Assembly: GCA_963834935.1 (NCBI GenBank)
Contig: CAWIDS010000001.1
Span: 65,338 to 129,337 of the forward strand
Source of the DNA: Candidatus Nomurabacteria bacterium
Lineage (GTDB): Bacteria > Patescibacteriota > Minisyncoccia > Phycocordibacterales > CALRBL01
Length of the DNA stretch: 64,000 nucleotides
Direction: 5' to 3'
Position 1 is the stretch's first letter; each line of letters starts with the position of its first letter. Under the pieces are notes generated by a model. That model was given only the letters and a program-made list of their open reading frames with translations. It did not search any database and was not told the origin of the DNA. Below are positions 15,914 through 64,000 of the stretch, piece after piece. Made by a program: the position numbers and the translations under genes.

Positions 15914-15914
15914 C

Positions 15915-16868: not shown

Positions 16869-17138
16869 TTGGGTCGAGTCATCGAACCGGAAAGGAATCC
16901 CGGAATCGAAAGACTCGAACAGCTCGCCCAAAACATAAGAGTGATGATACGCAAAGGAGTCGTCCTTTCTGAAATCGGAGGATATGCTAAAGAAGCTATT
17001 ATGGAGTTCAGGACTGCCAACGAGCTTCTCGCAGAACTTCCCGACGAAGACTACGCCGAGCTTCAGGAATTGGCAGATGACTTGTTCGAATTAGGAACCG
17101 CAGCAAAAGCTGCTTTAGATAATGAAGTTGAAGAATAA
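16869..17138 (+). CDS. Hypothetical small acidic protein
   Basis: The ORF was called from a TTG. A plausible internal ATG start at 16944 would give about 64 aa. No recognisable domain. Confidence 0.3.
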   Translation: MGRVIEPERNPGIERLEQLAQNIRVMIRKGVVLSEIGGYAKEAIMEFRTANELLAELPDEDYAELQELADDLFELGTAAKAALDNEVEE

Positions 17139-37605: not shown

Positions 37606-37608
37606 ATA

Positions 37609-38334
37609 TCATATACTGTCAATAGATACGAGATATGCTTCCGCAACGTACCTGTCGGTCTTCTGGCCGAAGCTATTGCACGTCGACAAAGTCAGCATAT
37701 TCTTTTTGTCCGAAAAATCAACCAATTCTTGAGTAGCATTGACCAGACTGACATCGCCTACCTTGTATACGTACTTTTTTTTCAAGCCGAAAAGGTCAAT
37801 TTCATCGCCGGCTTTAAGATTCTTTATGTTATTGAATACCTGGTATGCCTTGTTATTCACGATGCGATAGCCAGTGCTGTGACCGAAGATAAAGACGTTT
37901 CCTTCCCCTGCAAGGCCGGAGCCGGGATAATAGACAGGCCCATGAGTCAAGGAGTTATCGAGGACAGTGTAATCATCCGATGAAGGATGCACCACGTCAG
38001 CATCCAAGTTTATGGATGGCGCGACTATGCGGAGCGGCGTCTCGCCTTTCGGCGACGAGATGATCTGCGATGAATTCACTTCTGCGCTCGACGTGCCGGT
38101 CAATCCAAGATTCTGAAAAGTGGACTGCTCGATCTGGGTCGCGATGGTATTATCCTGCGTCTGAACTTCGAATTCATTGGGTATGAAGCCGAGAAAGTTG
38201 AGAATGATGCATGTCACGAGAAATACCCCAAGAAATATCCCGGCAAAAAAAAGAGTATTCTTTATGAAATGCTCGTGGGCGGCGTAAAAGGAGTTTTTCT
38301 TCATGGGAATTAGGGTCATTATAGCAGATGACAA
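37609..38334 (-). CDS. Sortase family transpeptidase
   Basis: 241 aa with an N-terminal TM anchor. The catalytic His is in 'IFGHSTGY', the Cys in 'LTLSTCNSFG', and an Arg follows downstream. It sits immediately upstream of the IPATG substrate, with a 3-nt gap. Confidence 0.8.
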   Translation of the reverse strand: MSSAIMTLIPMKKNSFYAAHEHFIKNTLFFAGIFLGVFLVTCIILNFLGFIPNEFEVQTQDNTIATQIEQSTFQNLGLTGTSSAEVNSSQIISSPKGETPLRIVAPSINLDADVVHPSSDDYTVLDNSLTHGPVYYPGSGLAGEGNVFIFGHSTGYRIVNNKAYQVFNNIKNLKAGDEIDLFGLKKKYVYKVGDVSLVNATQELVDFSDKKNMLTLSTCNSFGQKTDRYVAEAYLVSIDSI

Positions 38335-38375
38335 TTTATTGACAAGTATTATATTGTAAAGTATAATCCTGAATT

Positions 38376-39750: not shown

Positions 39751-41827
<2,077 letters not shown>

Positions 41828-42149
41828 AGATAAATATTGTAGCAGAGAAAGAAGCCAAAGTACCTATTGACATACTCTTTATATATGACACAATCCCAAT
41901 AGCTGCGTGCGGGGTTAGGTGCAACCCAGAGCCTAGACTGCTCTTCCTTTGAATCTTTGGCCGAGCCTTACGAACTCCGGCCAATATTCGAAGAATTGCC
42001 GTTCTTTAAAAGCGGACGAAGGAATCCTTGGCAATCCCAAAAGGAAACTTCTATCCGAAGCGGGAAACTCATTGGGATGATAACCGCAGCACCATCGCTG
42101 GGGGAGAAAGGCCTGGATCTCGGATTCCCTTTCTCCCCCTCCCTCTCTT

Positions 42150-42185
42150 TTCGACTGCATCACATGATGCGGTTTTTTATTTTAT
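42150..42185 (+). terminator. Terminator-like hairpin plus T run inside the 440-nt gyrB-secG intergenic region
   Basis: Sequence gcatcacatgatgc followed by ggttttttatttt. Confidence 0.45.
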
Positions 42186-42272
42186 GTAAATAAAAAGCGG
42201 CCCGAAATGAACCAGGTCCCTATGAATGACCCTCTTTGACAAAAGGCTTCTTTCTGGTATGCTTTTTCCTAC

Positions 42273-42500
42273 ATGACATTAATTCATTCATTCCTGCCCT
42301 ATATTCAGATCGTCCTTGCCGTGCTCATAATCCTAGGCGTGTTGCTCCAGCAGTCTGAAACTAGCCTCGGAGGGGCGTTCGGAGCCGGAGATTCTGGAAC
42401 TGCCTTCCATACTCGAAGAGGGTTTGAACGATTCCTATTCATAGGAACAATTGTCGTATGCGTCATTTTCGTCGCGACCTGCTTCATCGCGCTACTTTAG
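42273..42500 (+). CDS. secG: Preprotein translocase subunit SecG
   Basis: 75 aa with two TM helices flanking the Gly-rich loop 'LQQSETSLGGAFGAGDSGTAF'. Confidence 0.75.
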   Translation: MTLIHSFLPYIQIVLAVLIILGVLLQQSETSLGGAFGAGDSGTAFHTRRGFERFLFIGTIVVCVIFVATCFIALL

Positions 42501-42536
42501 CTCAGGCTCAATCAGCCGCCGGAAACCGGCACTTTC

Positions 42537-44225
42537 GTGAAGATCCCCTATCTATCATCTCTCAGAAAAATATATGACGAATTTTCTCTCATCGAGAAGA
42601 TCGTATTCACTGCGCTTGTAGTCGTCCTTATCGTCAGCGGCATGACTCTTCTCTATTTCTTCGGCACTTCCTACATGAAGGATGTCCCTGCCCGCGGAGG
42701 AGAGATGCATGAGGGCGTCGTCGGCTATCCGCATTTCATCAATCCATTGCTCGCCACCACAGAGAGCGAAAGGGATCTTTCTACCCTTACCTATTCGGGC
42801 CTGATGAGAGTCGATGCGACCGGAAACCTGGTTCCTGACCTTGCCGAAAGCTACACGGTCTCGAATGACGGAAAAATCTACACCTTCGTCCTCAGGAAAG
42901 GCGAAGTATTCCAAGATAATACGCCTATTACGAGCGATGACGTCATCTTTACCATACAAAAAGCCGAGGACCCGACCCTCAAGAGCCCTCAGCACGCCAA
43001 CTGGCAAGGAGTGACAGTAAATGCCATTGATGCCCGCACAGTCCAATTCGTCCTCAAGACCCCCTATTCTTCATTCCTCCAAAACACCACGCTCGGCATC
43101 CTGCCTAAGCACATCTGGAACGATGCCGACATCAACGAATTCACTTTCAGCTCATACAATTTCAATCCGGTTGGCTCCGGCCCATATCAGATAAAGGAGG
43201 TGAAGCGCGACAGCGCTGGCCTTCCTATCTACTACAGGCTCGTCGCTTTCAATAAATACCCGACAGGAGAAAAAGATATCTCTACCATATATATCCATAC
43301 TTTCATTGACCAACAGAGCATGATCAAGGCATTGGAAAAAGGAACAATCGGAAGCGCAGGAGGCATTTCTCCTTCTAATAAGCAGATTCTCGATGACACG
43401 AGATTCAACATCTACTCGCCCGCTCTACTTCGGACCATAGGAGTATTCTTCAACCAAAGCCAGAATCCGCTCTTTGCTCATGCTGAAATACGGCAAGCGC
43501 TCGGCATGGCAGTGGACAGAAACGATATAATTGGTAAAGTACTGTATGGTTACGGAAATGAGGAATTTTCACCTCTTCCACACAACCTCCTCCTTTCAAG
43601 CGGAACAAGCGCTTCATCTTCACTTGAAGCCGCAAAGAGCCTGCTCGACAAGAATGACTGGAAATCGAACAGCCAAGGAATCCGCGAGAAGAAGATAGGA
43701 AAGCAGACGGTGCAGCTTTCCTTTTCGATAACTACCTCGGACAATCCTGATCTTTTGAATACGGCTGCGCTCCTGAAAGAGGAATGGACGAAACTCGGCG
43801 CAAACGTGACTATCATCTCGCTTGATCCGTCAGATCTCAGCCAGAATGCCATCAGGCCTCGCAAGTACGACGCGCTACTTTTCGGAGAAGTCATAGGAAG
43901 GGGTGATGACCTCTATCCCTTCTGGGATTCGGCGGAAAGGAAGGATCCGGGGTTCAACATCGCCCTCTATGCGAACAGCAAGGCAGACAAATTCCTTGAA
44001 GAAGCACGAAGCGCGACCAGTTCGGATCAGAAAGCTTCAGAACTCGTATCGGCAGAAAATATCATCTCAGGCGACATGCCGGCCATATTCCTTTATTCCC
44101 CGGATTTCATTTATGTAGCCAGGAAGGATATCAAAGGGCTTTCACTTCCGCCGCTTGAAATGCCATACGAAAGATGGGCCGGCATCTTCGATTCATATAT
44201 CAATACAAGAAAAGTATTCAAATAA
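42537..44225 (+). CDS. ABC transporter substrate-binding protein, family 5 (peptide/nickel type), membrane-anchored
   Basis: 562 aa with an N-terminal TM. The SBP-5 architecture is 'YSGLMRVDATGNLVPDLAESY...'. Confidence 0.7.
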   Translation: MKIPYLSSLRKIYDEFSLIEKIVFTALVVVLIVSGMTLLYFFGTSYMKDVPARGGEMHEGVVGYPHFINPLLATTESERDLSTLTYSGLMRVDATGNLVPDLAESYTVSNDGKIYTFVLRKGEVFQDNTPITSDDVIFTIQKAEDPTLKSPQHANWQGVTVNAIDARTVQFVLKTPYSSFLQNTTLGILPKHIWNDADINEFTFSSYNFNPVGSGPYQIKEVKRDSAGLPIYYRLVAFNKYPTGEKDISTIYIHTFIDQQSMIKALEKGTIGSAGGISPSNKQILDDTRFNIYSPALLRTIGVFFNQSQNPLFAHAEIRQALGMAVDRNDIIGKVLYGYGNEEFSPLPHNLLLSSGTSASSSLEAAKSLLDKNDWKSNSQGIREKKIGKQTVQLSFSITTSDNPDLLNTAALLKEEWTKLGANVTIISLDPSDLSQNAIRPRKYDALLFGEVIGRGDDLYPFWDSAERKDPGFNIALYANSKADKFLEEARSATSSDQKASELVSAENIISGDMPAIFLYSPDFIYVARKDIKGLSLPPLEMPYERWAGIFDSYINTRKVFK

Positions 44226-50936: not shown

Positions 50937-51072
50937 ACATTCCTGATTCTACCATAAAACACAAAGCCTCCCGAAGGAGGCTTTGTGCGATATTTACTTT
51001 GTTTTGAACTCGCATCTATTGATGTAAGCTCTCACATGCCAAAACAATAGCATATATCGCCGAAAAAAGCAA

Positions 51073-53331
51073 CTATTGAGAAGTTGTTGACGTCCCGTTG
51101 ATCTGGGCGATATAGGCATCTCCCTGCTTCTCGAAGCCCGGCTCTATGGAAATGATGTCCTTTATCTCACTTATCGCTCCTTGCTTGTCGCCATTCTGAA
51201 GCTTCTGGTTTGCGATATTGAGCTTCATCTGAAGGAGGCTGTTCAGCCTGTCTGTCTGCTTGGTGTCGTAATATGCCCTCAACATGCGTATATCTACTCC
51301 ATCGTCAGTATTCTTCAAGGGAGCAAGTATTTGGTCTGCGGTCTGATTATCTCCGGCATAGATCAAGCCGACAGCATAAACGATCCTAGCATCAGTATCG
51401 TCAGTATCGAGCTCGAATGCCTGCTTGAGAGATGGGACTGCTTCCGCGTATTGGCCATTATTGAGATATGCAGAGCCTATCTCTATAAGAATCGTCTGCT
51501 TCTCTGGGCTGAGCTCATGAGCCTTCTCAAGGTCATCTATCGCCTCCTGAAAAGGAACCGATGACGCGACCTCATGAAGCTTGCTGAGATACGAACCATA
51601 GAAAAGAAAATATCGCGGATCGAGGGGAGTTTCCTTGAGCTGCATGTCCATCTCGCTATTGGTATAGGTGACGAAGGCAGATTTAATATCGCTTGAGACA
51701 TTGAGCTCTAATATCTGTGATGTTCCCTGGAGAAGCTGTTCCCTTGCCTCGGCCGTGCCAGCTGAGCCGTAACCAATCGCGGTCTTGTAAGCGGCAAGCG
51801 CTGCAGTGAAAGCTTCAGGCGTGCCGTTCTGCAAAGCATAATTCTGATAGCTTAAAGCATCGATGAGGGTGCTTGCAGCGAGATACGGGATGGCAACGGT
51901 GTAATAAAAAGTGACCGAGAAGACCGCGATAATCGCTGCCGAACCGAGCCAGAGATATGAGCTGTCCTTGATCGGCGTTGCAAGCCATTTCATATCGAAT
52001 GTTTTCTTCTCGTGGAAGTGGACGAAAGCAAGCACAGCGAAGAACAGGATGTAGCTTGTGATGTTGTCGAAGACGAAGATGTTGTGGATGAAATAAGCGA
52101 TCAAAAGCGAAGTCAGGATGACTTTGTCCGAGAAAAGGAAATACCGATGTTCCGAATCAAGCTTCGATTTCCAGATCGAGTAGATGCATGCGGCGAAAAG
52201 AGAAAGGTATGCGAGCAGTCCGAAGACTCCGCCAGCAATCAGCCAATCGAGGAATACGTTGTGCGCCCGATCGAACCACTGTTCCTGGTCATAAATCTTC
52301 GGATCATAATATTTGGCGAAAACATAATTGAAATTATCCTGGCCCCAGCCGAGAATCGGCCTTTCTTCCACTCCTTTCAAGGCGATGCCCCAGATGCCGA
52401 AACGTCCCTTTCCTTCGGTGCTCGCGAACTGCTCGAGCCCCGACTTGTCGAAAGTGGCGAGTGCGGCGAAGCGGGAAAGCAGATCATGCTGCTTGACGAA
52501 GTTGCTCTGCTTGAACGTAGCAAGAAGCCCCGCCACCAGGACAATCGTGACAATGGCTGCCACGCTTCCATAACGGAGAACCTTGTTCTTCTTCTCGAAG
52601 AATGCGAAAGCGACCGAGGCGAAAAGCACGCCGATAATCAAGCCGATAAGGGCTCCTCGGGTTCCCGTATGATAAAAAATATACAAGTCAAAAAGTGTCA
52701 CGGCAGAATAGATTCCTATGCCGGTCCATTTTATCTCCGGATTCGTCTTGTATTTCATCGAGTGGCGAACCAATAGGAAAACGGCAAGGAAGATATGGAA
52801 GAGCATGTATATGCCAAGATAGGTGGAATTTCCTGTGCGTGCATCAATGCGCTCGATTCCCTGACCGAGCTGGTCAAGTCCGTAGAATCCCATCACCACA
52901 CTCACCGCCAGCGAGGTCTGAAAAAGCCTCTGCCAAATCTTCTCGGTCATGACATTCGAGCTTAGCACAAGGAAATAGATGAAAAGATGGACGTGAGTGA
53001 CGAATCCTTCCATCCGCTCGAAATTTGACCAGAAGCTCTTGTACGGATATATTCCGAAAATGTCGGCCACTCCAATAACGACGAGGAATGTCACCAATGA
53101 AATAGTGATGGCGGTTATTTTCGGGCGGTATTTAGGATCACGTATGGCAAGGATGAGATACAGCTCTCCCGCCAGCTCGACAAGCAGCCTGAAGAGGAGA
53201 TTCTTGCCAGTTATGTAAGGAAAAAAGAGAGAAGAAGAGACAACAAGACAGACGAATGGAATTATGAATAAAAGCGAAACGACCGAATAATGCAAGATCT
53301 TGTTAGTATTCATGTCCTGAAATATTAGCAT
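51073..53331 (-). CDS. O-antigen ligase/polymerase-like (Wzy_C) membrane protein with C-terminal TPR repeats
   Basis: 752 aa. About 12 TM helices include the 'RAHNVFLDWLIAGGVFGL' O-antigen-ligase motif. The C-terminal ~250 aa is TPR-like. Confidence 0.65.
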   Translation of the reverse strand: MLIFQDMNTNKILHYSVVSLLFIIPFVCLVVSSSLFFPYITGKNLLFRLLVELAGELYLILAIRDPKYRPKITAITISLVTFLVVIGVADIFGIYPYKSFWSNFERMEGFVTHVHLFIYFLVLSSNVMTEKIWQRLFQTSLAVSVVMGFYGLDQLGQGIERIDARTGNSTYLGIYMLFHIFLAVFLLVRHSMKYKTNPEIKWTGIGIYSAVTLFDLYIFYHTGTRGALIGLIIGVLFASVAFAFFEKKNKVLRYGSVAAIVTIVLVAGLLATFKQSNFVKQHDLLSRFAALATFDKSGLEQFASTEGKGRFGIWGIALKGVEERPILGWGQDNFNYVFAKYYDPKIYDQEQWFDRAHNVFLDWLIAGGVFGLLAYLSLFAACIYSIWKSKLDSEHRYFLFSDKVILTSLLIAYFIHNIFVFDNITSYILFFAVLAFVHFHEKKTFDMKWLATPIKDSSYLWLGSAAIIAVFSVTFYYTVAIPYLAASTLIDALSYQNYALQNGTPEAFTAALAAYKTAIGYGSAGTAEAREQLLQGTSQILELNVSSDIKSAFVTYTNSEMDMQLKETPLDPRYFLFYGSYLSKLHEVASSVPFQEAIDDLEKAHELSPEKQTILIEIGSAYLNNGQYAEAVPSLKQAFELDTDDTDARIVYAVGLIYAGDNQTADQILAPLKNTDDGVDIRMLRAYYDTKQTDRLNSLLQMKLNIANQKLQNGDKQGAISEIKDIISIEPGFEKQGDAYIAQINGTSTTSQ

Positions 53332-53363
53332 ATTTGCCGAAAAAAGTGCTAATATAGCGTCCT

Positions 53364-54194
53364 ATGCAAGCGAATAGTCCTACAACGGTCATACGGCCCA
53401 AAAAGATATTCAGCCTGAAGGATCTCAGCGAATTGTGGCAATACCGTGAACTGCTCTATTTCTTTTCGTGGCGCGACCTCAAGGTCAGATACAAGCAGAC
53501 TTCGATCGGCGTGGCTTGGGCAATTTTCCAGCCTTTCATCACCATGATCGTCTTCACAGTTTTTTTCGGCAATCTGGCTAAGATTCCTTCCGACGGCGTA
53601 CCATATGCCATCTTCGTCTACGTCGGGCTACTTTTCTGGCAATTCTTCTCAAGCGCCCTTTCCGATACGAGCGACGTGCTCATCTCGAATCAGGCGATCG
53701 TCACCAAAGTATATTTTCCGAGGCTTCTCTTGCCTATCTCAAGCGTCATCACCAAGCTTGTCGACTTCGCCATCGCTTCGGTCATCCTTGTTGGCTTGAT
53801 GGTGTATTACGGATATGCGCCGCACCTCTCCGGACTTCTGATTCTTCCGCTGCTTCTCGTCATCTCATTCATGGCATCAGTCGGCGGCGGATTAATACTT
53901 GCATCTGTGAATGTAAAATACCGAGACGTCCGCTACGCACTTCCCTTTTTCATACAGATCCTGCTTTTCGTCACGCCGGTCATCTATTCTTCAAGCATTG
54001 TCGGAAAATATTCCTGGATACTGGCCATTAACCCGATGTCGGGAGTGATACAAAGCGCCCGCGCTGCCCTTCTCGGCACCGCACCGATAAACTGGAACCT
54101 GATCGGCATATCATTCCTGGCGACGACCCTGCTCATGATCGGTGGCATCTATTTCTTCAAAAAGACTGAACAGTATTTCGCTGACATCATATAA
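53364..54194 (+). CDS. wzm: ABC-2 type polysaccharide exporter permease (Wzm/TagG/KpsM-like)
   Basis: 276 aa with the ABC-2 topology 6-TM permease signature. Confidence 0.8.
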   Translation: MQANSPTTVIRPKKIFSLKDLSELWQYRELLYFFSWRDLKVRYKQTSIGVAWAIFQPFITMIVFTVFFGNLAKIPSDGVPYAIFVYVGLLFWQFFSSALSDTSDVLISNQAIVTKVYFPRLLLPISSVITKLVDFAIASVILVGLMVYYGYAPHLSGLLILPLLLVISFMASVGGGLILASVNVKYRDVRYALPFFIQILLFVTPVIYSSSIVGKYSWILAINPMSGVIQSARAALLGTAPINWNLIGISFLATTLLMIGGIYFFKKTEQYFADII

Positions 54195-54203
54195 ATACGA
54201 GCA

Positions 54204-55460
54204 ATGGAAAAAGCAATCATCGAAGTAAAGAATATCGGAAAGAAATATAATATCTCGCATCAGCGTGGCGGCTATGTCGCCTTGCGCGATGTCATCGCTG
54301 GCGTTTTCAAGACGCCGTTCAAATTCCTCAAGCAGAAGGTCAAACAAGTGACAGGCTTCAAGACTAAAGAAGAATTCTGGGCGCTCAAAGGCGTCAACTT
54401 CGAGATCAAGAAGGGTGAAGTAGTCGGCATCATCGGCAGGAACGGCGCGGGCAAGTCGACCCTTCTGAAGATACTTTCCCAGATCACCCCTCCCACTGAA
54501 GGGGAAATAAAGATTTACGGCCGCGTCGGCTCGCTGCTCGAAGTAGGCACCGGCTTTCACCCTGAACTTACCGGCCGCGAGAATATCTTTCTCAACGGCG
54601 CCATCCTCGGCATGACGAAGAAAGAAATCGTTCGAAAATTCGACGAGATCGTCGCCTTCGCCGGTATTGATCGCTTCCTTGATACTCCCGTCAAACATTA
54701 CTCAAGCGGAATGTACGTGCGTCTCGCTTTCTCCGTCGCTGCCCACATGGAGCCGGATATTCTTATTATCGACGAAGTGCTTGCCGTCGGAGACGCCGAA
54801 TTCCAGAAGAAATGCCTCGGCAAGATGGAAGAGATCACCAAGGGCGAAGGACGTACCATCCTTTTCGTCAGCCACAACATGGGAGCGGTCCAGCAGCTTT
54901 GCAAGAAATCGATCCTGCTCAAGGAAGGCAAAGTAGATTATATCGGCCCGACCGAGACTGCCATCTCGAAATACATGGATGCCTCACTGAACAAGGACTC
55001 GGGAAAAATGGATTTGAGAAAATTCAACGGCAGCCTTTCAAGCAAGGCATCTTTCACCGACATTTATATAAATGACGGCGATGGATTCGCCAATATAAAA
55101 CCTTCTTCAGCAATCACCATCAAGGCGAAAGGTGAGATAATTGAAGAAATCGAGCTGTTCAACGTCTCTTTCTCAGTTTATGCGAAAGGAATAAGGCTTT
55201 TCACTACGGAAGATGTCGAGACTCCTTCAACAATCAAGAAAGGCTTGTTCGAATCGGAAATTGTCATTCCTGCATACATGCTCCGACCCGGAAATTATTC
55301 CATCGGCCTTGGCGGTTGGAACGAACGGGGCGATTGGCTCTACGCCGAAGATGTCGGGCATTTCAATATCCTTGAGGAATGGGACATGGCGAATAAAGAG
55401 GCCCATTTCGGCATCATCAATATTCCCGTAAAAGGAAAACGTACTATCCATGAAAAATGA
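54204..55460 (+). CDS. wzt: Polysaccharide ABC exporter ATPase (Wzt/TagH-like) with a ~170-aa C-terminal extension that may be a carbohydrate-binding module
   Basis: 418 aa. Walker A 'GRNGAGKST', signature 'YSSGMYVRLAF' and Walker B 'ILIIDEVLAVGD' are followed by an extra C-terminal domain. Confidence 0.8.
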   Translation: MEKAIIEVKNIGKKYNISHQRGGYVALRDVIAGVFKTPFKFLKQKVKQVTGFKTKEEFWALKGVNFEIKKGEVVGIIGRNGAGKSTLLKILSQITPPTEGEIKIYGRVGSLLEVGTGFHPELTGRENIFLNGAILGMTKKEIVRKFDEIVAFAGIDRFLDTPVKHYSSGMYVRLAFSVAAHMEPDILIIDEVLAVGDAEFQKKCLGKMEEITKGEGRTILFVSHNMGAVQQLCKKSILLKEGKVDYIGPTETAISKYMDASLNKDSGKMDLRKFNGSLSSKASFTDIYINDGDGFANIKPSSAITIKAKGEIIEEIELFNVSFSVYAKGIRLFTTEDVETPSTIKKGLFESEIVIPAYMLRPGNYSIGLGGWNERGDWLYAEDVGHFNILEEWDMANKEAHFGIINIPVKGKRTIHEK

Positions 55461-56916
55461 GAATTCAAAAAAAGTGGCATTGGTGACGCTTGTCACCGGC
55501 GAAGAATACAGCAAACTCTATTACGAGCACTTCTTCCCTTCGCACCAGCGATTCGCCAAGAAGCACGGACTTGACCTGATCGTGCTCAAAGACCGCATCG
55601 ACAAGAGCGAATACGGCATGGCTCGTCACCCTTCATGGCAGAAGCTGCTCATCTTCCAAGCGCCGGAGACTGCAGGCTACGAAAGGCTGTGCTGGATTGA
55701 TGCCGACATCTATATCACCTATCATGCCAAGAACCCTTTCTTTGAGGTGAAAAAAGGCTATTGGGGCGCTGTCAGGAACAATCCCTTCGGTTTCGACTAT
55801 CTCAACAAGACTGATCTCGAGCTGTACGCTTTCTGTCCGACAGAAAACAGGCCTTTATATATATTGAATGGCGGATTCTTCGTCGTTGAAAAATCGGAGC
55901 ATCAAGCCCTCTTTGAAAAGGTCTACAAAGATTACCCTGAACAGCCATGCTACGAGCAAGGTCCGCTTTCATACCACCTGATCAACGAGAAGAAAGGCGT
56001 CGAGCTTCCGCCTTCTTGGAATTGCATCCAGCCGAATTATTTTAATTTTCATCAATCCCAGAACAAGATCGTCCGGATATTCAATTTCGTCATGGAAAAT
56101 GATTTCATACATTTCTGCGGAGGAATCAATTGGAAGATATTCCGAACGGCCAGTTTTCTCGACAATACGCTGGCTGACTTCGATACCATCTCTAAAACCA
56201 GATTCATGAGAAAGGTAGGAAAGGTGTATTCGAGAATCCTGGAAAAATTAAGCAAGTTGGAGCGAAAGAACGAAGATGAAGAGAAACTCGAAACGTATCA
56301 CGCTGAAAATGCGCGGCTTGAGAATGAATTCGATTCCCTTCCGCCGCCCAAAAAGCTCCATTTCGGCTGCGGGCCGCGCGTGCTCAAAGGCTGGATCAAC
56401 ATTGATCTTTTCTTTGAGCCATACGAACAATACATGAAAAGCTATACGGCTGAATTTTACGGAGAGGAGATGCGTGGAAGCCGGAATGAGTTCTATGCGA
56501 TCGATATCATCAAGACCGGTCTGAATCTTCCGGATAATTCCGTCGATGTAATCTTCCACGAGGATTTCATCGAGCATCTGAGCGAAAAGGAGCAGGTCAT
56601 ATTCCTCGCGGAAACTTTGCGCGTTCTCAAACCCGGCGGGATCCACCGCATCAACACGCCTGAGCTTCTCATGGCTATGAAAAAATCCCGCTTTGCAGAA
56701 GGTAAAGCCGGCGTCTACGAAGCGGAATGGAATAATCACGGCCATTTCAACATCCTAACCAAACGGAACATGGAAGAACTTGCGCGCATGGTCGGATATT
56801 CGAGTATAGTATTCAATTCAAGAAATAATAGTACGTCGAAAATGATCCCTAAAGAATACAGACCAGCACCAGACAGACCAGAGGATGGAAATATTTTTGC
56901 TGATCTCATTAAATAA
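55450..56916 (+). CDS. Bifunctional GT-A-like glycosyltransferase (N-terminal) and class I SAM-dependent methyltransferase (C-terminal)
   Basis: 488 aa. The N-terminus has 'ALVTLVTGEEY...CWIDADIYI' (DxD). The C-terminus has 'LHFGCGPRVLKGWINIDL', 'EDFIEHL' and 'LRVLKPGG' methyltransferase motifs. Confidence 0.6.
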   Translation: MKNENSKKVALVTLVTGEEYSKLYYEHFFPSHQRFAKKHGLDLIVLKDRIDKSEYGMARHPSWQKLLIFQAPETAGYERLCWIDADIYITYHAKNPFFEVKKGYWGAVRNNPFGFDYLNKTDLELYAFCPTENRPLYILNGGFFVVEKSEHQALFEKVYKDYPEQPCYEQGPLSYHLINEKKGVELPPSWNCIQPNYFNFHQSQNKIVRIFNFVMENDFIHFCGGINWKIFRTASFLDNTLADFDTISKTRFMRKVGKVYSRILEKLSKLERKNEDEEKLETYHAENARLENEFDSLPPPKKLHFGCGPRVLKGWINIDLFFEPYEQYMKSYTAEFYGEEMRGSRNEFYAIDIIKTGLNLPDNSVDVIFHEDFIEHLSEKEQVIFLAETLRVLKPGGIHRINTPELLMAMKKSRFAEGKAGVYEAEWNNHGHFNILTKRNMEELARMVGYSSIVFNSRNNSTSKMIPKEYRPAPDRPEDGNIFADLIK

Positions 56917-57735
56917 ATGAATAGGATAAAGAAGATATTGCCGGCCGGAATAAAGAATTTTCTCAAAGGAGTCATTTCCTTTTTCCGCGCCTCAGTGGAC
57001 CTGATAAAAAGAAGGAAGAGGCGATTCTTGCGTACATTTTCAAAAAACAGCGAGGCCGGATACTCATTTGCCATCCTTGCCGTCAAAAAGACCGCCTACA
57101 TCGACATGGCGATAGACAACATCAATTCCCTTCACTATATCAATCCGAATCATCACGTAACCCTTTACTGCGATACTGCCTGCTTGGAATATGTCTCAGG
57201 GAAAAAAGATAAGCTTGATTACCCACAAAAGGTCGCGATCATAGACTCATACGGAAAAGAAGACAGGCCGTGGCAAGAAAGCAAGATCGATACCTTGATC
57301 GATGCCAGCCGCAAAGGAATGATACTGACTGATGCCGACGGCATATGGCATGAGGATCCAATTGTCGACCCGGAAAAAATAACCATGCTCGTCATCGTCA
57401 ACAAGATAAAGGAAAAGGTGGACGAGCTGCAGCTCGTCGAGACTCTCTTCAAGAAAGAATGGGGCGATTTCACCCATTATGTGACAGGATTCGTCTCTAT
57501 CCCATCACGACTAATGACGGAAGAAGTCGCCGCTGACATGAGATCATTCAACGCGCTCATTTTCACCGAAGGAAAGGGCTTGAAAAGGCTTTCGGAAGAG
57601 CTCTCCATAAATCTCGCTCTGCAATCTCACTATCCCGCAGAGCTTTTCTCGACGCTGAAGGACGAAGATGGTCCGGGAAGCACCTCATCTCTTCAATCGC
57701 TTTATTACGGCTGCCTCAATGAGATAACCGAATAA
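56917..57735 (+). CDS. Hypothetical protein, possible nucleotide-sugar transferase-like
   Basis: 272 aa with a 'LTDADGIW' DxD-like motif. Otherwise unrecognised. Confidence 0.35.
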   Translation: MNRIKKILPAGIKNFLKGVISFFRASVDLIKRRKRRFLRTFSKNSEAGYSFAILAVKKTAYIDMAIDNINSLHYINPNHHVTLYCDTACLEYVSGKKDKLDYPQKVAIIDSYGKEDRPWQESKIDTLIDASRKGMILTDADGIWHEDPIVDPEKITMLVIVNKIKEKVDELQLVETLFKKEWGDFTHYVTGFVSIPSRLMTEEVAADMRSFNALIFTEGKGLKRLSEELSINLALQSHYPAELFSTLKDEDGPGSTSSLQSLYYGCLNEITE

Positions 57736-57736
57736 T

Positions 57737-58621
57737 ATGGATAAGCTTCAAAAAAAGATACATAACCGCATGATCCGCATCAGGAAATTCCTTGTCGCTC
57801 ATTCGGGCAATCCGAGGCCTTCCAGCTATCCGTATGTCAGCGGCGATACTTTCCGGGCCATCGCGGATCATATTCATGATGACCTGAAGACAGTTGATAC
57901 TTCAAAAGTAAAAGAAGCTGATATTATTTTCGTCAAAATATCATATATAAAAGAATTCTTTGAAAAGATCCATCCTCACATAAAATTTCCATATAAGCTC
58001 ATCACTCACAATGGCGATATCCTGATCGACGAAAAGTTGTCGACATACGCGGACGAAAAAATCATCAAGTGGTATGGGCAGAATGTCACGATAAATCATC
58101 CTAGGATCGTTCCGCTGCCGATCGGCCTCGAGAATATCTCCTACTGCAACAGTGGCCTGCCTAAATATTTCAATCGGCTCAGGATAAAGAGCCTGCCTAA
58201 AAAAAATCGAATACTCTTCGGCTTCAATATCATGACCAACAAGGAAAAGCGTCAGCAAGCGGAAAATGTCCTACTCTTCCTTCCCGTCGCCGACAAGATA
58301 CAAGGCTGGCCCGGAGCGAAAAAATATCTCGAACTTGCGGCATCGTACGCTTTTGTCGCTTCTCCCGAAGGCAACGGTATCGACTGCCACCGCACGTGGG
58401 AAGCCCTTTATCTTGGTGCTGTCCCCATCGTCACCTCTTCGCCGGTAACTGAGCACTTCAAAAGCATTGGATTCCCTCTTTTTGTGATCAAGGATTGGAA
58501 AGAGCTGTGTGGACTTACTGAAAATGATCTGAAAAAAAAATATCACGAGCTTCAGGATTCATTTGACAAAAGCCTCCTTCGAGCCGATTATTGGTTTAAT
58601 CTCATATGCCCGAAAAAATGA
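57737..58621 (+). CDS. Exostosin-like (GT47-like) glycosyltransferase
   Basis: 294 aa. The C-terminal motif 'FVASPEGNGIDCHRTWEALYLGAVPIV' is typical of the exostosin family. Confidence 0.45.
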   Translation: MDKLQKKIHNRMIRIRKFLVAHSGNPRPSSYPYVSGDTFRAIADHIHDDLKTVDTSKVKEADIIFVKISYIKEFFEKIHPHIKFPYKLITHNGDILIDEKLSTYADEKIIKWYGQNVTINHPRIVPLPIGLENISYCNSGLPKYFNRLRIKSLPKKNRILFGFNIMTNKEKRQQAENVLLFLPVADKIQGWPGAKKYLELAASYAFVASPEGNGIDCHRTWEALYLGAVPIVTSSPVTEHFKSIGFPLFVIKDWKELCGLTENDLKKKYHELQDSFDKSLLRADYWFNLICPKK

Positions 58622-59805
58622 AGCCTCGTCTCTCCATAATAATGCCCTGCTATAATTGCGCCTCGACGCTTGAGGAATCGCTCGATTCCGCATATGCGCA
58701 GGCCCTCACCATTCCTTTCGAGATAATAATGGTGGATGACGGATCGACTGACAAGACAGCAGGATTGATAAAAAAGCTCGCTTCGAAGCATCCGGAAATA
58801 AAGACACTCGCGCATGAAATAAATCGCGGCGGGGGAGCGGCGCGAAATACCGGCATCAAGAACTCTTCCGGAGAGCTGATTTTCTGCCTCGATAGTGATA
58901 ATGTGCTCGGTCCGGGATCGCTCAATGCCCTGATCTCCTATCTCTCAGAAAAGAAGGCGGACGCTGTTGCTTTCGGCGAGCGTCGCTTCTTCATCGGCAA
59001 TAACCTCAGCAAATTCCGCGCCGAGAAATATCCCGTCACAAGCGAACCTTTCCCTTTTATCGGCCTCTTCAAGGAAAAGGCCGTTCTCCTTGATAATTTT
59101 CTTTTTACCAAGGAATCATTCCTCCGCACTGAGGGTTATCCCGAACATCACGGCTTCGATACCCAATGCTTCGAGATCCGTTATCTTTTATCGGGAGCCA
59201 AGCTGTATATTGTTCCTGATGCAATCTTCTACCATCGACAGGTTGGAGGCAAGAAATCATATTTTGAGAGAGTGTATGAATCAGGAGAATTTTCCAAGAA
59301 CTTCTATCTCATATATGAGGATTTATTTTGTCTTTTTTCTCCTGAAACGAGGAAAGCAATAATCAATTTCAACATCTTCAGGCAGAATACCTTGGACGAC
59401 CAAAGCCTTCCAAAGATGATAGAAAAGCTTTACATGAAAGATCCCGGCAGCTTTCTCGTCAAAAATTACGAAAAATTCACGGCGCCGTCTGCCTTTGAAG
59501 ATACGATCGATGGACTCTTCTGCAAGGCGATATTTCTCTACAAAGACAAAAAATTTAAGGAAGCTCTCGATTGCTACGCTACATTGGCTGAAAAAGGGCT
59601 CGATACGCCAATCCTTCACTTCAACATGTTGAGAAATACCTTGGCCCTCGCCTATCCCAATGACCTCGTCTCCATTGAAAAAAGGGTTTCAGCCGTTCTC
59701 GATTCCATGAGCGTCAAAAGAAGGAGAATCGACATGAGGAATGGTATTATAAGGAGAATAATTAATAAGATAAAAAATGAATACGACAAGACTGCAGAAA
59801 ATTAA
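58606..59805 (+). CDS. GT2 family glycosyltransferase with a C-terminal TPR-like region
   Basis: 399 aa. GT-A motifs 'SIIMPCYNCASTLEESL', 'MVDDGSTDKT' and 'DSDN' are present. Confidence 0.75.
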   Translation: MPEKMKPRLSIIMPCYNCASTLEESLDSAYAQALTIPFEIIMVDDGSTDKTAGLIKKLASKHPEIKTLAHEINRGGGAARNTGIKNSSGELIFCLDSDNVLGPGSLNALISYLSEKKADAVAFGERRFFIGNNLSKFRAEKYPVTSEPFPFIGLFKEKAVLLDNFLFTKESFLRTEGYPEHHGFDTQCFEIRYLLSGAKLYIVPDAIFYHRQVGGKKSYFERVYESGEFSKNFYLIYEDLFCLFSPETRKAIINFNIFRQNTLDDQSLPKMIEKLYMKDPGSFLVKNYEKFTAPSAFEDTIDGLFCKAIFLYKDKKFKEALDCYATLAEKGLDTPILHFNMLRNTLALAYPNDLVSIEKRVSAVLDSMSVKRRRIDMRNGIIRRIINKIKNEYDKTAEN

Positions 59806-60560
59806 AAGGAAAGTTGGAAAGATACCGTTTGCCGCGCCGCTGTATCACTCGCTCAAAGGAAGCTATTATTACGCCGATTTCATCAGGGATTTTTTCGCAT
59901 TCAAGAAGATGTCCGGCGCTAATCCCCGCTTCCCCCGTATCGTGGACCAGGCAGTACCCATGCCTTACTGACAAGACGTCCATCACCGGCTTCGAGCCGC
60001 ACTACCTCTACCATCCTGCATGGGCTGCCCGCATCATCGCTGAGGTCAAGCCGAAGCTTCATATCGACTTCTCTTCGATCCTTCATTTCAGCACCCTTGT
60101 CTCGGCATTCGTGCCGGTCCATTTTTATGATTACCGCCCGGCTGACATAAAGCTGAAAAATCTCGAATGCAAGAAAGGAGACTTGCTTGCTATGCCTTTC
60201 GCTGACAGTTCCGTCGAATCGCTTTCGTGCATGCATACCATCGAGCATGTCGGCCTCGGCCGCTACGGCGATCCGCTTGATCCCGAAGGCGACCTCAAGG
60301 CAATCAAAGAACTCATCCGAGTGCTTGCACCAGGAGGCACGCTCATCTTCGTCACCCCGATCGGTAAAGCAAAACTCGAATACAATGCGCACCGCATCTA
60401 TTCATATGCACAGATAAAAAGCTATTTCAAAGAACTTACTCTAAAAGAATTCTCTCTCATTCCCGACAATTTCCTTGAAACAGGAATAGTAAAAAATGCG
60501 ACAGAAGAATTAGCTGACAAGCAAGAGTGGGGCTGCGGCTGTTTCTGGTTCACGAAGTAA
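59777..60560 (+). CDS. DUF268-like SAM-dependent methyltransferase, apparently frameshifted near 59960
   Basis: The 64-aa ORF (59777..59971) ends '...FPRIVDQAVPMPY*'. The coding then continues in another frame, '..TDKTSITGFEPHYLYHPAWAAR...LAPGGTLIFVTPIG' (59814..60560). Confidence 0.5.
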
Positions 60561-61344
60561 AGCCGAGCAGCTTCTTGTCTTCTTCGTCAATCGGCGTCTC
60601 ATATAGATCCTTGTACTGGTGAAGGATTGAGATGTCGTGCAATTCATTCTTTCTTTTATCGAAATCCACGTACCATGTCTCACAGAGGCCCTTGAACGGG
60701 CCGATAGTTCCACCATGATAGAGCACGAGCAGGCTGATCCAAATATCGCTGACGAATTTATCCCAGTGCACATGGGGCCTTATTTTTTCGATATCGCCTT
60801 CGACATCAGTGAAATGCTCGAGAATAAATGACTTCTTGACGATACAGCCGCCGAAGCCTCCCCAATAATAATTCCTTGTCCAAAAAGGAATGCTCTTATT
60901 CCTCTTTTTCAGGAATTTCGTTTCATTGCGCCCGAGCTGCATGGCGGGATTGTTTCCGTTTATGGTGAATGGCAGCTGCTGCCGAACCACATCCATCACG
61001 AGAACATCGTCTTCAAGAAGAAGGATATAGTCCTCCTTTATATATTTCGCCGCATCGACGAGACGATGAAGCCATGAGATGAGACGGTCAGGATTCTCGA
61101 ATACGTTCGATACGCCATTCCCTGTATTGAAGCTCTCATTCTTATAGCGGACATTGAAATGCTCGGCAAGCTTCGAAAAATCATCGCCTCCGTCGCCGAC
61201 GACGTACATGTCGGAATCCGGATAATATTTCCTGAAGGAAGATATAACCGAAATGACCGCCTTCGGCCGCTTGTAGCACTGATAGAAGGCCCCTATAGAC
61301 GGATATTCACTCATGATAAGATGATAGCATGCAAAGCGATCCAT
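60550..61344 (-). CDS. Hypothetical protein, possible GT-A-like transferase
   Basis: 264 aa with the acidic motif 'YILLLEDDVLV'. Confidence 0.35.
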   Translation of the reverse strand: MDRFACYHLIMSEYPSIGAFYQCYKRPKAVISVISSFRKYYPDSDMYVVGDGGDDFSKLAEHFNVRYKNESFNTGNGVSNVFENPDRLISWLHRLVDAAKYIKEDYILLLEDDVLVMDVVRQQLPFTINGNNPAMQLGRNETKFLKKRNKSIPFWTRNYYWGGFGGCIVKKSFILEHFTDVEGDIEKIRPHVHWDKFVSDIWISLLVLYHGGTIGPFKGLCETWYVDFDKRKNELHDISILHQYKDLYETPIDEEDKKLLGFTS

Positions 61345-62210
61345 TAGCGACTCCGGCTCTTCTCATCATATTCAACCGCCCGGACGCATCAAAGCGGCTC
61401 CTTGAGCGGCTCAGGGAAATAAGACCTGTGAGGATTTTCATATCTGCCGACGGTCCGCGATCAGATAAGCACGGCGAAAAAGAGTTGTGCGAAAAGACGC
61501 GGGCAGTGTTCGATTCCATCGATTGGCCTTGCGACATCAGGAAGAATTACCATGAGCAGAATCTCGGCTGCGACCCGCACATCATTTCCGCTGTCGACTG
61601 GCTTTTTGAATATACCGAATCTGGCATCATCCTCGAAGACGATTGCCTTCCCGATCCTACCTTTTTTCCTTTTTGTGCGACGCTGCTTGAAAAATACAAG
61701 GACGACCGGCGAGTAATGCATATTAACGGGTCTAATTTCCAATTCGGCAACATCCGCGGCAACGGAAGTTATTATTTCTCGCACTATGCCCACAGCTGGG
61801 GCTGGGCAACGTGGAAAAGGGCTTGGGCTGATTTCGGCACGACAAAGGCATTCGCGCCTTTTTCTAAAGACCAGAAAGAAAACAGGTTCTGGCTTAATTT
61901 CTTCGAGAAGATATCTGCCGGCAAATATCCGTTCTGGGACGCGCGCTGGCTTTTCACTATCTGGTCGGAGGGAGGTATCGTCATCACTCCGAACAGCAAC
62001 CTCATCACCAACATCGGCTTCGGCAAGGAAGCCACGCATACCAGCATCGAGGAAAAGATCATGAACCAGCCGACAATTCCGATGAAAGAGATCATTAATC
62101 CTTCGTCCGAGGAAATAAATGCCGAAGGTGACGCTTTCACTTTTAAGGTATATTATTATCGAACACACCTTCAGAAAATCATCCATAAGCTTAATTCCCT
62201 CTTAAACTGA
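61329..62210 (+). CDS. GT-A fold glycosyltransferase with an EDD motif (GNT-I-like)
   Basis: 293 aa. 'LLIIFNRPD...RIFISADGP' and 'IILEDDCLPDPTFF' are present. Confidence 0.45.
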   Translation: MQSDPLATPALLIIFNRPDASKRLLERLREIRPVRIFISADGPRSDKHGEKELCEKTRAVFDSIDWPCDIRKNYHEQNLGCDPHIISAVDWLFEYTESGIILEDDCLPDPTFFPFCATLLEKYKDDRRVMHINGSNFQFGNIRGNGSYYFSHYAHSWGWATWKRAWADFGTTKAFAPFSKDQKENRFWLNFFEKISAGKYPFWDARWLFTIWSEGGIVITPNSNLITNIGFGKEATHTSIEEKIMNQPTIPMKEIINPSSEEINAEGDAFTFKVYYYRTHLQKIIHKLNSLLN

Positions 62211-62211
62211 C

Positions 62212-63066
62212 ATGATCATCACCAGACTCGGCGGCGGCCTCGGCAACCAGATGTTCCAATACACCATAGGCAGGGCGCTTGCCTTGAAGAATAATGACGT
62301 CCTCAAGCTCGACATCAGCACTTACACGCCCGAATACCCACGCCAGTACGGCCTTAAGCATTTCAATATCGACGAGCATTTCGCTACGCCTGAGGAATCA
62401 CGGAAACTCCGACTGCCTTACGGCTTCTTCTCGCGCGTCATCCGCTCTTTTCGCGCCCGGGTGCTCCGCCAATTTTACGTCGGTTATCATCCTGAAGTGA
62501 TGGAAAGAAAAGGCGACGTCTTCCTCGAAGGATTCTGGAAAAATGAGAAATACTTCTTGGATATAGAGCAGGTCATCAGGAAAGACTTCACTTTAAAAAA
62601 TCCCCTTTCAGCAATGTCCCGAGCATTCAAGGAAAAAATTCAAGCGGAACGGATATCAGTCTCCTTGCATGTGCGCCGAGGCGACTATGTCAATGATGAA
62701 AAGACAGGTATCTATCACGGCGTCTGCTCGCCTGAGTATTACCGCAAAGCAATAGAGAAAATAAAGGAAAAATGTCCGGCATTCATCCTTTTTGTCTTTT
62801 CAGACGACATCCTGTGGGTCAAGGAGAACATGAAGTTCGACATTCCGGCAGTATACGTCTCGCACAAGGACATTCCCGACTATGAAGAGCTTGTCCTGAT
62901 GAGCCTCTGCTCGCACAACATCATCGCCAACAGCACTTTCAGCTGGTGGGGGGCATGGCTTAATGCTAATCCTGAAAAGATAATCATCGCTCCTTACCGA
63001 TGGCTCGCTAAGACCGGTGACGACCATTACAAGGAAGTGCCTGACTCGTGGATCAAGATACGATAA
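62212..63066 (+). CDS. Alpha-1,2-fucosyltransferase (GT11)
   Basis: 284 aa. The N-terminal GT11 signature 'RLGGGLGNQMFQY' and 'HVRRGDY' are present. Confidence 0.8.
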   Translation: MIITRLGGGLGNQMFQYTIGRALALKNNDVLKLDISTYTPEYPRQYGLKHFNIDEHFATPEESRKLRLPYGFFSRVIRSFRARVLRQFYVGYHPEVMERKGDVFLEGFWKNEKYFLDIEQVIRKDFTLKNPLSAMSRAFKEKIQAERISVSLHVRRGDYVNDEKTGIYHGVCSPEYYRKAIEKIKEKCPAFILFVFSDDILWVKENMKFDIPAVYVSHKDIPDYEELVLMSLCSHNIIANSTFSWWGAWLNANPEKIIIAPYRWLAKTGDDHYKEVPDSWIKIR

Positions 63067-63067
63067 T

Positions 63068-64000
63068 ATGGAAAAAATTCCTTATGATATAGTCATTGTC
63101 GGAGCGGGAATCTCGGGTGCGACCCTTGCTGAACGTTATGCCAATATCCTCGGCAAGCATGTGCTTATCATCGAGAAGCGCGACCACATCGGTGGAAACT
63201 GCTATGACAGCAGAAATGACGCAGGTATACAAGTCTCCAAATACGGCCCTCACTATTTTCGCACCAACGACGAACGCGTGATGGAATATGTCAGCACATT
63301 TTCCGAGTGGGTGCCTTTCGAAGCAAAGTGCCTGAGCCATGTGGATGGCAAGAAGGTGCCTGTGCCGGTAAACATCGATACGGTCAATTCCCTTTTCAAT
63401 CAGAAAATCACCAATGAAGCGGAAATGAAGGAATGGCTTTCGCATGAGACAGAAGACATTCCTGAACCGCAGAACTCCGAAGAATCGGCTCTCAAGCGAG
63501 TAGGCAGAAAGCTCTATGAGAAGATGTTCAAGAATTACACAATAAAGCAGTGGGACAAGGATCCAAAGGAGCTTGAAGCAAGCGTCATGGATCGCATCCC
63601 TGTGCGCTTCAATCACGACGACCGGTACTTCACCGACAAATACCAGATGTATCCCAAAGAGGGGTATGAAAAGATATTCAGGAACATGTTGGCAAGTCCC
63701 TTGATTAAAGTACGGACAGGAAGCTCGTGGGAAGAGGTATCTAAAGAAGTTCGAGGATATGAAAAACTCTTCTTCACAGGCACCATCGATTCGTATTTCA
63801 ACGAGGAATTCGGCAAGCTCGAATACCGCTCGCTCCGTTTCGAGGAAGAGACGCTTGACCAGGAATTCTTCCAAGACGCCGTGCAGGAAAACTATCCCGA
63901 TAATGCCATTCCCTTCACCCGCATCGTCGAATACAAGCATCAGACAAAGCAGGTTTCCCCGCGAACAACGATTGTGAGAGAATATCCTACATGGGAAGGC
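63068..64000 (+). CDS. glf: UDP-galactopyranose mutase, 3'-partial (continues beyond the window)
   Basis: Manual translation starts 'MEKIPYDIVIVGAGISGATLAERY...GGNCYD...GPHYFRTND' and includes 'YTIKQWDKDP'. The frame is open to the window end. Confidence 0.85.
   Translation, partial: MEKIPYDIVIVGAGISGATLAERYANILGKHVLIIEKRDHIGGNCYDSRNDAGIQVSKYGPHYFRTNDERVMEYVSTFSEWVPFEAKCLSHVDGKKVPVPVNIDTVNSLFNQKITNEAEMKEWLSHETEDIPEPQNSEESALKRVGRKLYEKMFKNYTIKQWDKDPKELEASVMDRIPVRFNHDDRYFTDKYQMYPKEGYEKIFRNMLASPLIKVRTGSSWEEVSKEVRGYEKLFFTGTIDSYFNEEFGKLEYRSLRFEEETLDQEFFQDAVQENYPDNAIPFTRIVEYKHQTKQVSPRTTIVREYPTWEG

Follow-up and report, generated by a model that had tools for sequence, protein, structure and literature searches.

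The stretch of DNA analysed here, 64,000 nucleotides of contig CAWIDS010000001.1 (hereafter, the window), ends in a dense block of genes for making and exporting a glycan. This locus brings together an ATP-binding cassette (ABC) transporter with Wzm and Wzt subunits, several glycosyltransferases, two methyltransferase domains, the UDP-galactopyranose mutase Glf and a membrane protein (p1) that carries a Wzy_C domain and tetratricopeptide repeats (TPR), and it probably encodes a pathway in which a cell-surface glycan is exported by an ABC transporter that depends on a cap. The domains and folds, the order and overlaps of the genes and the recurrence of these modules together in other genomes are observed; from them we infer the following order of steps. 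The glycan would be assembled in the cytoplasm on a polyprenyl-phosphate carrier by single-domain enzymes of the GT2, GT114, GnT-I-like GT-A and GT11 types, by the GT-A domain of a glycosyltransferase-methyltransferase fusion (p4) and probably by two further proteins (p5 and p9), with Glf supplying UDP-galactofuranose. p4 would then add the last sugar and O-methylate it, which would stop elongation and create the cap. The C-terminal domain of Wzt would recognise this cap, the lipid-linked glycan would cross the membrane via Wzm/Wzt and, outside, p1 would transfer it en bloc to an acceptor. Since the likely host is a member of the Patescibacteria without lipopolysaccharide (LPS), this acceptor is probably a surface protein (an S-layer protein or pilin, as for WsfB or PglL) or an anchor in the membrane or wall rather than lipid A-core.

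The locus forms one tight block that extends from position 50,959 to the window end and runs on past it, as the first-pass annotation of this DNA had stated, with glf cut at position 64,000 (Table 1). A strong terminator marks its left boundary, and the genes upstream (CdaA, an ABC importer and small membrane proteins) are unrelated. p1 and wzm are divergently transcribed, 32 bp apart, and the nine genes after wzt abut or overlap, p9 being the only inverted one. From wzm through to glf, neighbouring genes abut or share up to 29 nt, which makes the locus contiguous. The first-pass annotation had likewise described a contiguous, ABC-transporter-dependent glycan locus with a GT11 enzyme, Glf and methyltransferases, and we found every gene class it named where it had been placed. 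Its count of at least six glycosyltransferases holds for five, to which p5 and p9 add two candidates. Locus proteins were assigned by hidden Markov model (HMM) scans with Pfam and NCBIfam, and the open reading frames (ORFs) of positions 1-51,000 were inspected by eye. G+C content is 0.45-0.49 in the locus and 0.42-0.52 elsewhere in the window, and composition thus gives no sign of recent transfer. A 295-amino-acid (aa) ORF at 63053-63940(-) was rejected as a gene because glf covers the same DNA, which makes it an artefact of the antisense strand.

The transporter genes are clear. Wzm is 70-72% identical to the Wzm proteins of two Patescibacteria loci (L011 and L014), and its top NCBIfam match is the galactan export permease Wzm/RfbD; galactan export subunits are among the best NCBIfam matches of both Wzm and Wzt, with scores far below the cut-offs (76 against 380 bits and 180 against 400 bits). 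The best solved relative of Wzt is the full-length Aquifex aeolicus protein (8dku/7k2t, E 1.2e-69, aligned over 43-369), followed in the list by TagH, TarH and RfbE, and the ATPase domain matches the teichoic-acid exporters TagH and TarH nearly as well. The C-terminal extension of Wzt is colinear with that of its homologs, of which 12 out of 14 match Wzt_C (best 6.7e-15), and we predict that it is a divergent Wzt_C carbohydrate-binding domain (CBD). Locus L082 bears on the function of this domain. There, a full-length p4 homolog (P0001) comes after Wzm-Wzt, and the C-terminal domain of Wzt is the closest to that of the window (29% identity, against 13-19% for the rest), whereas in the ATPase domain this Wzt is outranked (61% vs 74%). 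p4 together with a matching Wzt C-terminal domain is what a cap model would predict, in this one case.

p4 itself, whose start overlaps the end of wzt by 11 nt, is a putative capping or terminating enzyme. The HMM scan recognised only its C-terminal half (Methyltransf_11 covers residues 349-399). An AlphaFold2 model built on an alignment of 60 homologs (predicted local distance difference test, pLDDT, 93.4) has a GT-A domain (9-244) that a 46-residue helix (249-294) joins to a class I S-adenosylmethionine (SAM) methyltransferase (300-488). In Foldseek, the C-terminal domain matches SAM methyltransferases, and the GT-A domain matches the A64R domain of chlorovirus PBCV-1 (2p6w, E 1e-10), glycogenin and XXT1. 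We found no Pfam GT8 match in the window protein; its homologs P0003 and P0026 carry PF01501, and the DxD motif D84-A-D86 is invariant among homologs of the N-terminal domain. The fold thus points to a retaining-type, GT8/GT34-like GT-A domain. Full-length p4 homologs also occur in another setting, as in L083 (700-2322), where the gene lies after a B12-binding radical SAM protein and before an Exostosin_GT47-type glycosyltransferase.

Cap-dependent export offers a ready model for such a fusion. In Escherichia coli O9a, WbdD combines a kinase with a methyltransferase on a coiled coil; p4 differs from it in having no kinase domain and a single long helix. In cap-dependent ABC systems, a methylated sugar at the non-reducing end both stops chain growth and clears the chain for export (PMC9445017). 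The A. aeolicus O antigen carries a methylated mannose or rhamnose cap, and the CBD of its Wzt has been shown to bind 3-O-methyl-mannose (PMC9445017). E. coli O8/O9a and A. aeolicus pair Wzm with a Wzt bearing a C-terminal CBD, as predicted in the window, but the window Wzt's C-terminal domain is too divergent for a sequence match to any solved CBD, and the window host probably lacks LPS.

On the outer side of the membrane, the proposed pathway would depend on p1. By crude hydropathy analysis, p1 has ~11 hydrophobic segments and a 91-residue loop (274-364) that overlaps its Wzy_C domain (residues 212-376), followed by four hydrophobic segments before the TPR region (~594-690); since four such segments separate the two, loop and TPR domain probably face the same side of the membrane. 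An arginine and a histidine in a large external loop are typical of WaaL-family ligases, and R287 and the motif WFDR355-A-H357 are invariant in the four p1 homologs. These homologs (32-37% identity, full length) come from four loci only, three labelled as Patescibacteria-type and one as 'bacterium', and head glycan loci: one stands beside Wzm/Wzt in L011, which repeats the divergent p1-wzm-wzt arrangement, and three beside Wzx-type flippases (L002, L023 and L042). p1 would therefore fit an enzyme acting after export by either route, and a ligase rather than a polymerase, because its homologs adjoin two different export systems. We describe it as a putative en-bloc glycan transferase, either a ligase or an O-oligosaccharyltransferase; the layout of Wzy_C with a C-terminal TPR has been reported for the O-oligosaccharyltransferases WsfB and PglL (PMC2943079).

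These data also bear on other roles for p1. It might stand outside the pathway, as a Wzy-type polymerase or ligase for another locus, while the glycan made here is released or is attached by an enzyme encoded elsewhere. The divergent transcription of p1 and its own terminator would suit such a role, as would the three homologs beside Wzx-type flippases (the usual partners of Wzy) and the absence of a p1 homolog within 16 kb in L084, a locus otherwise syntenic with the glycosyltransferase cassette. We nonetheless consider it very unlikely, as the gap between p1 and wzm is so short, the divergent layout recurs in L011, and one family conserved over its full length beside two export systems would suit a ligase better than a polymerase. 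Less easily set aside, although still somewhat unlikely, is the possibility that export proceeds as proposed while p1, like pneumococcal TacL or as another non-protein ligase, joins the glycan to a membrane glycolipid or the cell wall and so yields a lipoglycan or a secondary cell-wall polymer in place of a glycoprotein. In a monoderm, the Wzy_C protein TacL ligates chains of teichoic acid to a glycolipid (PMC5727136), the near-equal scores of the Wzt ATPase domain against TagH and TarH would agree with such a product, and PglL_A and Wzy_C_2 were not among the Pfam matches of p1 (E ≤ 0.01). However, TacL has 397 aa and no TPR (PMC5727136), whereas the TPR extension of p1 matches the layout of protein O-oligosaccharyltransferases (PMC2943079), and the locus contains no polyol-phosphate or LCP genes.

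The nature of the host matters for the same question. In a scan of species-representative genomes with the GT11 protein, the best match reached 47% identity and the top matches were mostly from Patescibacteria, and Wzm/Wzt are 70-78% identical to those of such loci in a Paceibacterota bin and a Saccharibacteria bin. Nine proteins of the window (LepA, HisRS, topoisomerase I, a ClpB-like protein, RNase III, Wzt, p1, GT11 and p10) were all singletons at 90% identity in a look-up of ~15 billion sequences, and no close relative of the organism has been sequenced. Housekeeping genes compared by tblastn with the retrieved loci gave no taxonomic information. The host is probably a bacterium of the Patescibacteria, or candidate phyla radiation (CPR), judging from these relatives. 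A curated Parcubacteria genome lacks the genes for lipid A and LPS biosynthesis, and the envelope structure of all CPR studied has been described as still unclear (PMC5220378).

Seen against this background, a classical LPS O-antigen locus of a diderm, in which Wzm/Wzt would export an undecaprenyl-PP-linked O-polysaccharide and p1 would be the WaaL ligase that joins it to lipid A-core, appears highly improbable. Wzy_C is the O-antigen ligase domain, the A. aeolicus transporter that is the best solved relative of Wzt exports an O antigen, O-antigen clusters commonly contain GT11, Glf and Wzm/Wzt, and Proteobacteria and Bacteroidota account for many relatives of the GT11 enzyme at ~40% identity. 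Yet the closest Wzm/Wzt and p1 homologs lie in Patescibacteria-type genomes; the curated Parcubacteria genome had no LPS genes; p1 has 752 aa with a TPR, whereas characterised WaaL proteins have ~400 aa (PMC5727136); and no LPS, Lpt or outer-membrane genes were seen in the 64 kb, which is weak evidence. As to other acceptors, the products of three adjacent genes at 35932-39734 (557, 241 and 452 aa) each start with a hydrophobic anchor and are repeat-like and rich in Ser/Thr; they may be surface proteins and possible glycan acceptors.

Table 1. Features of the glycan locus, with positions in the window and the basis of each assignment.
Feature	Position	Strand	Basis or remark
Intrinsic terminator	50959..50988	-	13-bp G+C-rich stem then T-run; just downstream of p1
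p1, Wzy_C and C-terminal TPR membrane protein, 752 aa	51073..53331	-	Wzy_C E 7.5e-21
wzm, ABC-2 permease	53364..54194	+	PF01061 (ABC2_membrane) E 1.2e-16
wzt, nucleotide-binding subunit with ~150-aa C-terminal extension	54204..55460	+	ABC_tran E 1.4e-23
p4, predicted GT-A/long helix/methyltransferase fusion	55450..56916	+	Methyltransf_11, AlphaFold2, Foldseek
p5, 272 aa, rare family, candidate glycosyltransferase	56917..57735	+	Invariant DxD motif
p6, GT-B glycosyltransferase, CAZy GT114	57737..58621	+	Match to A075L structures
p7, GT2 with helical C-terminal extension	58606..59805	+	PF00535 E 4.3e-33, residues 10-144
p8, DUF268-type SAM methyltransferase, frameshifted	59777..60560	+	DUF268 E 1.3e-15, Methyltransf_11
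p9, 254 aa, very rare family, candidate GT-A glycosyltransferase	60550..61314	-	DGG and EDD motifs
p10, GT-A glycosyltransferase, GnT-I (GT13)-like fold	61329..62210	+	AlphaFold2 and Foldseek
p11, GT11 glycosyltransferase	62212..63066	+	PF01531 E 1.1e-34
glf, UDP-galactopyranose mutase, first 311 residues	63068..64000	+	PF03275 (GLF) E 3.6e-57; cut by window end

Several of the enzymes that would build the glycan could be placed with more precision than before. p6 had been called GT47-like, and its glycosyltransferase kinship is borne out by a phmmer match to structures of the chlorovirus PBCV-1 protein A075L (PDB 8q8i/8avq/8asa, E 3.3e-21), which rises to E 1e-39 with a seven-sequence profile of the p6 family. 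The family name is not: A075L was formerly called an exostosin/GT47 enzyme and now defines CAZy family GT114 (PMC11571054). The invariant residues D94, R172 and R219 of p6 align with Asp73, Arg158 and Arg208 of A075L, that is, with its catalytic Asp and both phosphate-binding Arg (PMC11571054). By sequence, p6 is an A075L-like member of GT114; RXYLT1_C (25.7 bits, just under its gathering score) and, weakly, Exostosin matched as well. p7, the GT2 enzyme, shares 51% identity with its counterpart in L084, a syntenic locus.

For p10, the label 'GNT-I-like' applies to the fold and not to the sequence family. There was no Pfam match even at E 10, a profile search against PDB found nothing, and for the p10 family ('HlpA-like', 5136 homologs) no Pfam model was on record for the 120 listed. 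The AlphaFold2 model (pLDDT 94.1, predicted TM-score 0.92) matches GnT-I (1fo8, E 1.9e-11), POMGnT1 (5ggi, E 2.2e-11) and then GnT-II in Foldseek, and the motif E103-D-D105 is invariant. The model therefore suggests a protein that is GnT-I-like at the fold level rather than a member of GT13.

The GT11 and Glf calls, on which the first-pass annotation had staked its case, are both supported by HMMs (Table 1). p11 scores 120.5 bits against a PF01531 cut-off of 23.9, and its translation displays the GT11 motifs GGLGNQMFQY, HVRRGDY and STFSWWGAW; it belongs to the alpha-1,2-fucosyltransferase family, GT11 membership being no proof of fucose. glf also matches NAD_binding_8 (E 1e-17) and scores 295.8 bits against the TIGR00031 cut-off of 303.75, over model positions 2-313 of 378, the last ~65 residues lying outside the window. 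The predicted 'fucosylated, Galf-containing, methylated polymer' is a reading of family names, fucose and galactofuranose included, and the product may be a defined oligosaccharide rather than a long polymer.

As the first-pass annotation had noted, several members of the locus have no recognisable family; p5 and p9 were left unplaced by HMM. Only 100 representatives related to p5 were found among 1.84 billion, and p5 had no Pfam match (E ≤ 10) and no PDB match in a profile search. D86 and D139-A-D141 are invariant in the family, and W119-Q120 is nearly so. A correspondence of p5 to domain 2 of the chlorovirus protein A064R was considered, but conservation along the alignment was too low to scan viruses with it, and of the 80 viral and 83 bacterial or metagenomic loci searched by HMM, p5 turned up in L084 alone, where a p5-like domain is fused C-terminally to a domain like the N-terminal domain of p4 (P0004). 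The hhalign comparison of p5 with this p4 domain was not significant (E 0.09); the WQ...DAD motifs align. We propose p5 as a candidate glycosyltransferase that may be functionally tied to p4. The p9 family is rarer still, with 57 homologs, all without a name, among 5.8 billion sequences, Pfam matches only at E ~0.1 (HPAT, GT2) and no PDB match in a profile search. Its D41-G-G motif is nearly invariant, as are E101 and D102 of the motif E101-D-D103, in which D103 is invariant. hhalign comparisons among the p5, p9 and p10 families gave nothing significant. p9 is absent from syntenic loci, where p10 directly follows p8, and p9 and glf have both been added in this lineage.

L084 is the best syntenic relative of the glycosyltransferase cassette. 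With the gene order kept, it carries a separate methyltransferase like the C-terminal domain of p4 (62% identity), the fusion of p4- and p5-like domains (54% and 51%) and a p6-like gene (49%), and continues with an extra methyltransferase, a GT2, an intact DUF268 methyltransferase (75%), a p10-like gene (52%) and a GT11 (59%). A JGI contig has a similar gene order from the gene like the N-terminal domain of p4 onward. Because domains are rearranged between genes in L084 and the JGI contig, we suggest that the N-terminal domain of p4, p5 and the methyltransferase work together.

Both methyltransferase domains that had been predicted are present, but the DUF268-type one (p8) is frameshifted. Its DNA is read from the ATG at 59777 for 64 codons, with the remainder in the frame of 59814, and when it is aligned with its homolog from L002, positions 59813-59935 fall in one frame (E 5.7e-5) and 59964-60557 in another. 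The frame changes at an indel near 59950 ('ccaggcag', no homopolymer), and relatives of p8 are intact at 261-262 aa. Elsewhere in the window, gyrB (39751-41827(-)) is broken by ~8 frameshifts, with conserved GyrB motifs that hop between frames, so the p8 frameshift is possibly an assembly error. The broken gyrB may be either local assembly indel noise or a decayed copy. A look-up of its fragment in Logan gave no match, and an alternative genetic code was rejected as the cause, long genes of the window being intact under table 11. Beside it lie ~2.3 kb (41828-44154) without a convincing ORF and without an Rfam match at gathering thresholds.

Together, the two broken genes and the inverted p9 that interrupts an otherwise conserved p8-p10 junction raise the question of whether the locus is partly decayed or mis-assembled, so that its product is not made as we propose. 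We find this quite unlikely, as the remaining genes of the locus have their full length and match homologs from one end to the other. A Logan contig assembled independently carries the same sequence over 5,046 bp (window 58828-63873), the p8 frameshift included, and without one decorating methyltransferase the glycan would be altered but not lost.

The closest overall model, by analogy, is the S-layer glycosylation of Gram-positive bacteria (Wzm/Wzt, WsaE and WsfB). In Geobacillus stearothermophilus NRS 2004/3a and Paenibacillus alvei, the slg clusters likewise have wzm-wzt directly before tightly overlapping glycosyltransferase genes, they occur in monoderm hosts (which we count as a likeness), and they encode a multidomain glycosyltransferase-methyltransferase for a terminal O-methyl cap, as p4 putatively is (PMC2943079). 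Their Wzt is predicted to bind the capped chain, as we predict for that of the window, and their Wzy_C transferase either has a C-terminal TPR (WsfB), like p1, or works with a separate TPR partner (WsaA/WsaB) (PMC2943079). That WsaE makes a 2-O-methyl cap in Geobacillus and that Wzt binds it are themselves proposals (PMC2943079). The domain order differs, WsaE having an N-terminal methyltransferase followed by two rhamnosyltransferase domains, whereas in p4 the GT8/GT34-like domain and the helix precede the methyltransferase. The sugars differ as well: slg glycans are rhamnans, whereas the window has GT11, GT114 and Glf. Finally, the rml genes, S-layer gene and WsaP-type initiating enzyme of slg clusters were not found in the window. 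Another point of comparison is the galactan of Klebsiella O1/O2 and of mycobacteria, where, as here, Glf is encoded beside an ABC-2 exporter. The Wzt of these galactan systems is not known to have a CBD, and the galactans are not known to be capped.

Several points weigh against a cap-dependent pathway of the kind we propose. No initiating polyprenyl-phosphate glycosyl-phosphate transferase was found by Pfam in the locus or by eye in the ORFs of positions 1-51,000; it may sit beyond the window, as the right end of the locus does. Apart from glf, no sugar-nucleotide genes (GDP-fucose, galE, rml or others) were recognised in the 64-kb window. The Wzt extension (residues ~270-418) matches Wzt_C below the Pfam threshold (23.3 bits, E 6.8e-5, gathering score 30.4) and, taken alone, had no PDB sequence match, and the link between the Wzt C-terminal domain and p4 was seen in the single locus L082. 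p1 is a separate, divergently transcribed unit, and the absence of PglL_A and Wzy_C_2 from its Pfam matches counts here too, as does the frameshift in the second methyltransferase. In L084, the cassette is accompanied not by Wzm/Wzt but by an exporter with fused ABC_membrane and ABC_tran domains (2089-3900, 603 aa, PglK/MsbA-like). The same glycan-building module is thus combined with different export systems, and, because of this pairing in L084, the cassette would need no cap-reading transporter. The glycosyltransferase calls for p5 and p9 come from motifs and context only, and the taxonomic assignment is indirect, being drawn from the nearest relatives.

Glycan loci of such a variable and mosaic kind are common, and our results do not overturn current models; the novelty is limited to the probable host, the two rare families and the domain shuffling. 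The envelope of Patescibacteria is poorly defined, and their cell surface is the point of contact with their hosts. Here, the locus offers concrete targets, for glycoproteomics or heterologous expression, in the form of a Wzy_C/TPR transferase, a putative capping enzyme and a Wzt predicted to read the cap. It adds bacterial members to the recently defined GT114, and it flags two very rare candidate glycosyltransferase families, with 57 and 100 relatives in searches of multi-billion sequences.

The kinship with chlorovirus enzymes extends beyond p6. In structure, the nearest match to p4's GT-A domain is domain 1 of PBCV-1 A064R, with an identity of only ~15%. Like p4, A064R combines a glycosyltransferase with a methyltransferase, its domain 3 2-O-methylating a terminal rhamnose (PMC9614988). 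In a viral structure library, a 638-aa chlorovirus protein (the reported length of A064R) aligns over 431 columns, and further viral glycosyltransferase-methyltransferase fusions also align. The plan of A064R thus has bacterial counterparts, with domains shuffled between genes. Unlike the window locus, the chlorovirus enzymes act on a protein-linked N-glycan in the algal cytoplasm, with no lipid carrier or exporter. A bolder reading, which we consider unlikely as a whole, is that the locus provides an LPS-less Patescibacteria cell with a general protein O-glycosylation system, in which a WsfB/PglL-like TPR oligosaccharyltransferase decorates S-layer proteins or pilins with a methyl-capped glycan built by enzymes that share their lineages with those glycosylating the chlorovirus capsid (A075L/GT114 and the A064R-like fusion), with p5 and p9 as two new glycosyltransferase families. 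If true, it would open a first way into the mechanisms of the CPR cell surface and suggest that the chlorovirus enzymes came from bacteria.

Gene sets resembling that of the window also occur in viral sequences. The 64-kb viral contig IMGVR_UViG_3300023210_002753 (L146) carries, at ~1600-17500, a GT2, a GT11-like enzyme, a GT114, a weak match to the p9 family (E 4.9e-5), a DUF268-like methyltransferase and another methyltransferase. A075L-like GT114 enzymes are widespread in IMG/VR, where at least 589 stretches contain p6 relatives, including metagenome-assembled genomes of giant viruses, and several viral GT114 loci (L085-L164) also carry GT11 or Glf homologs.

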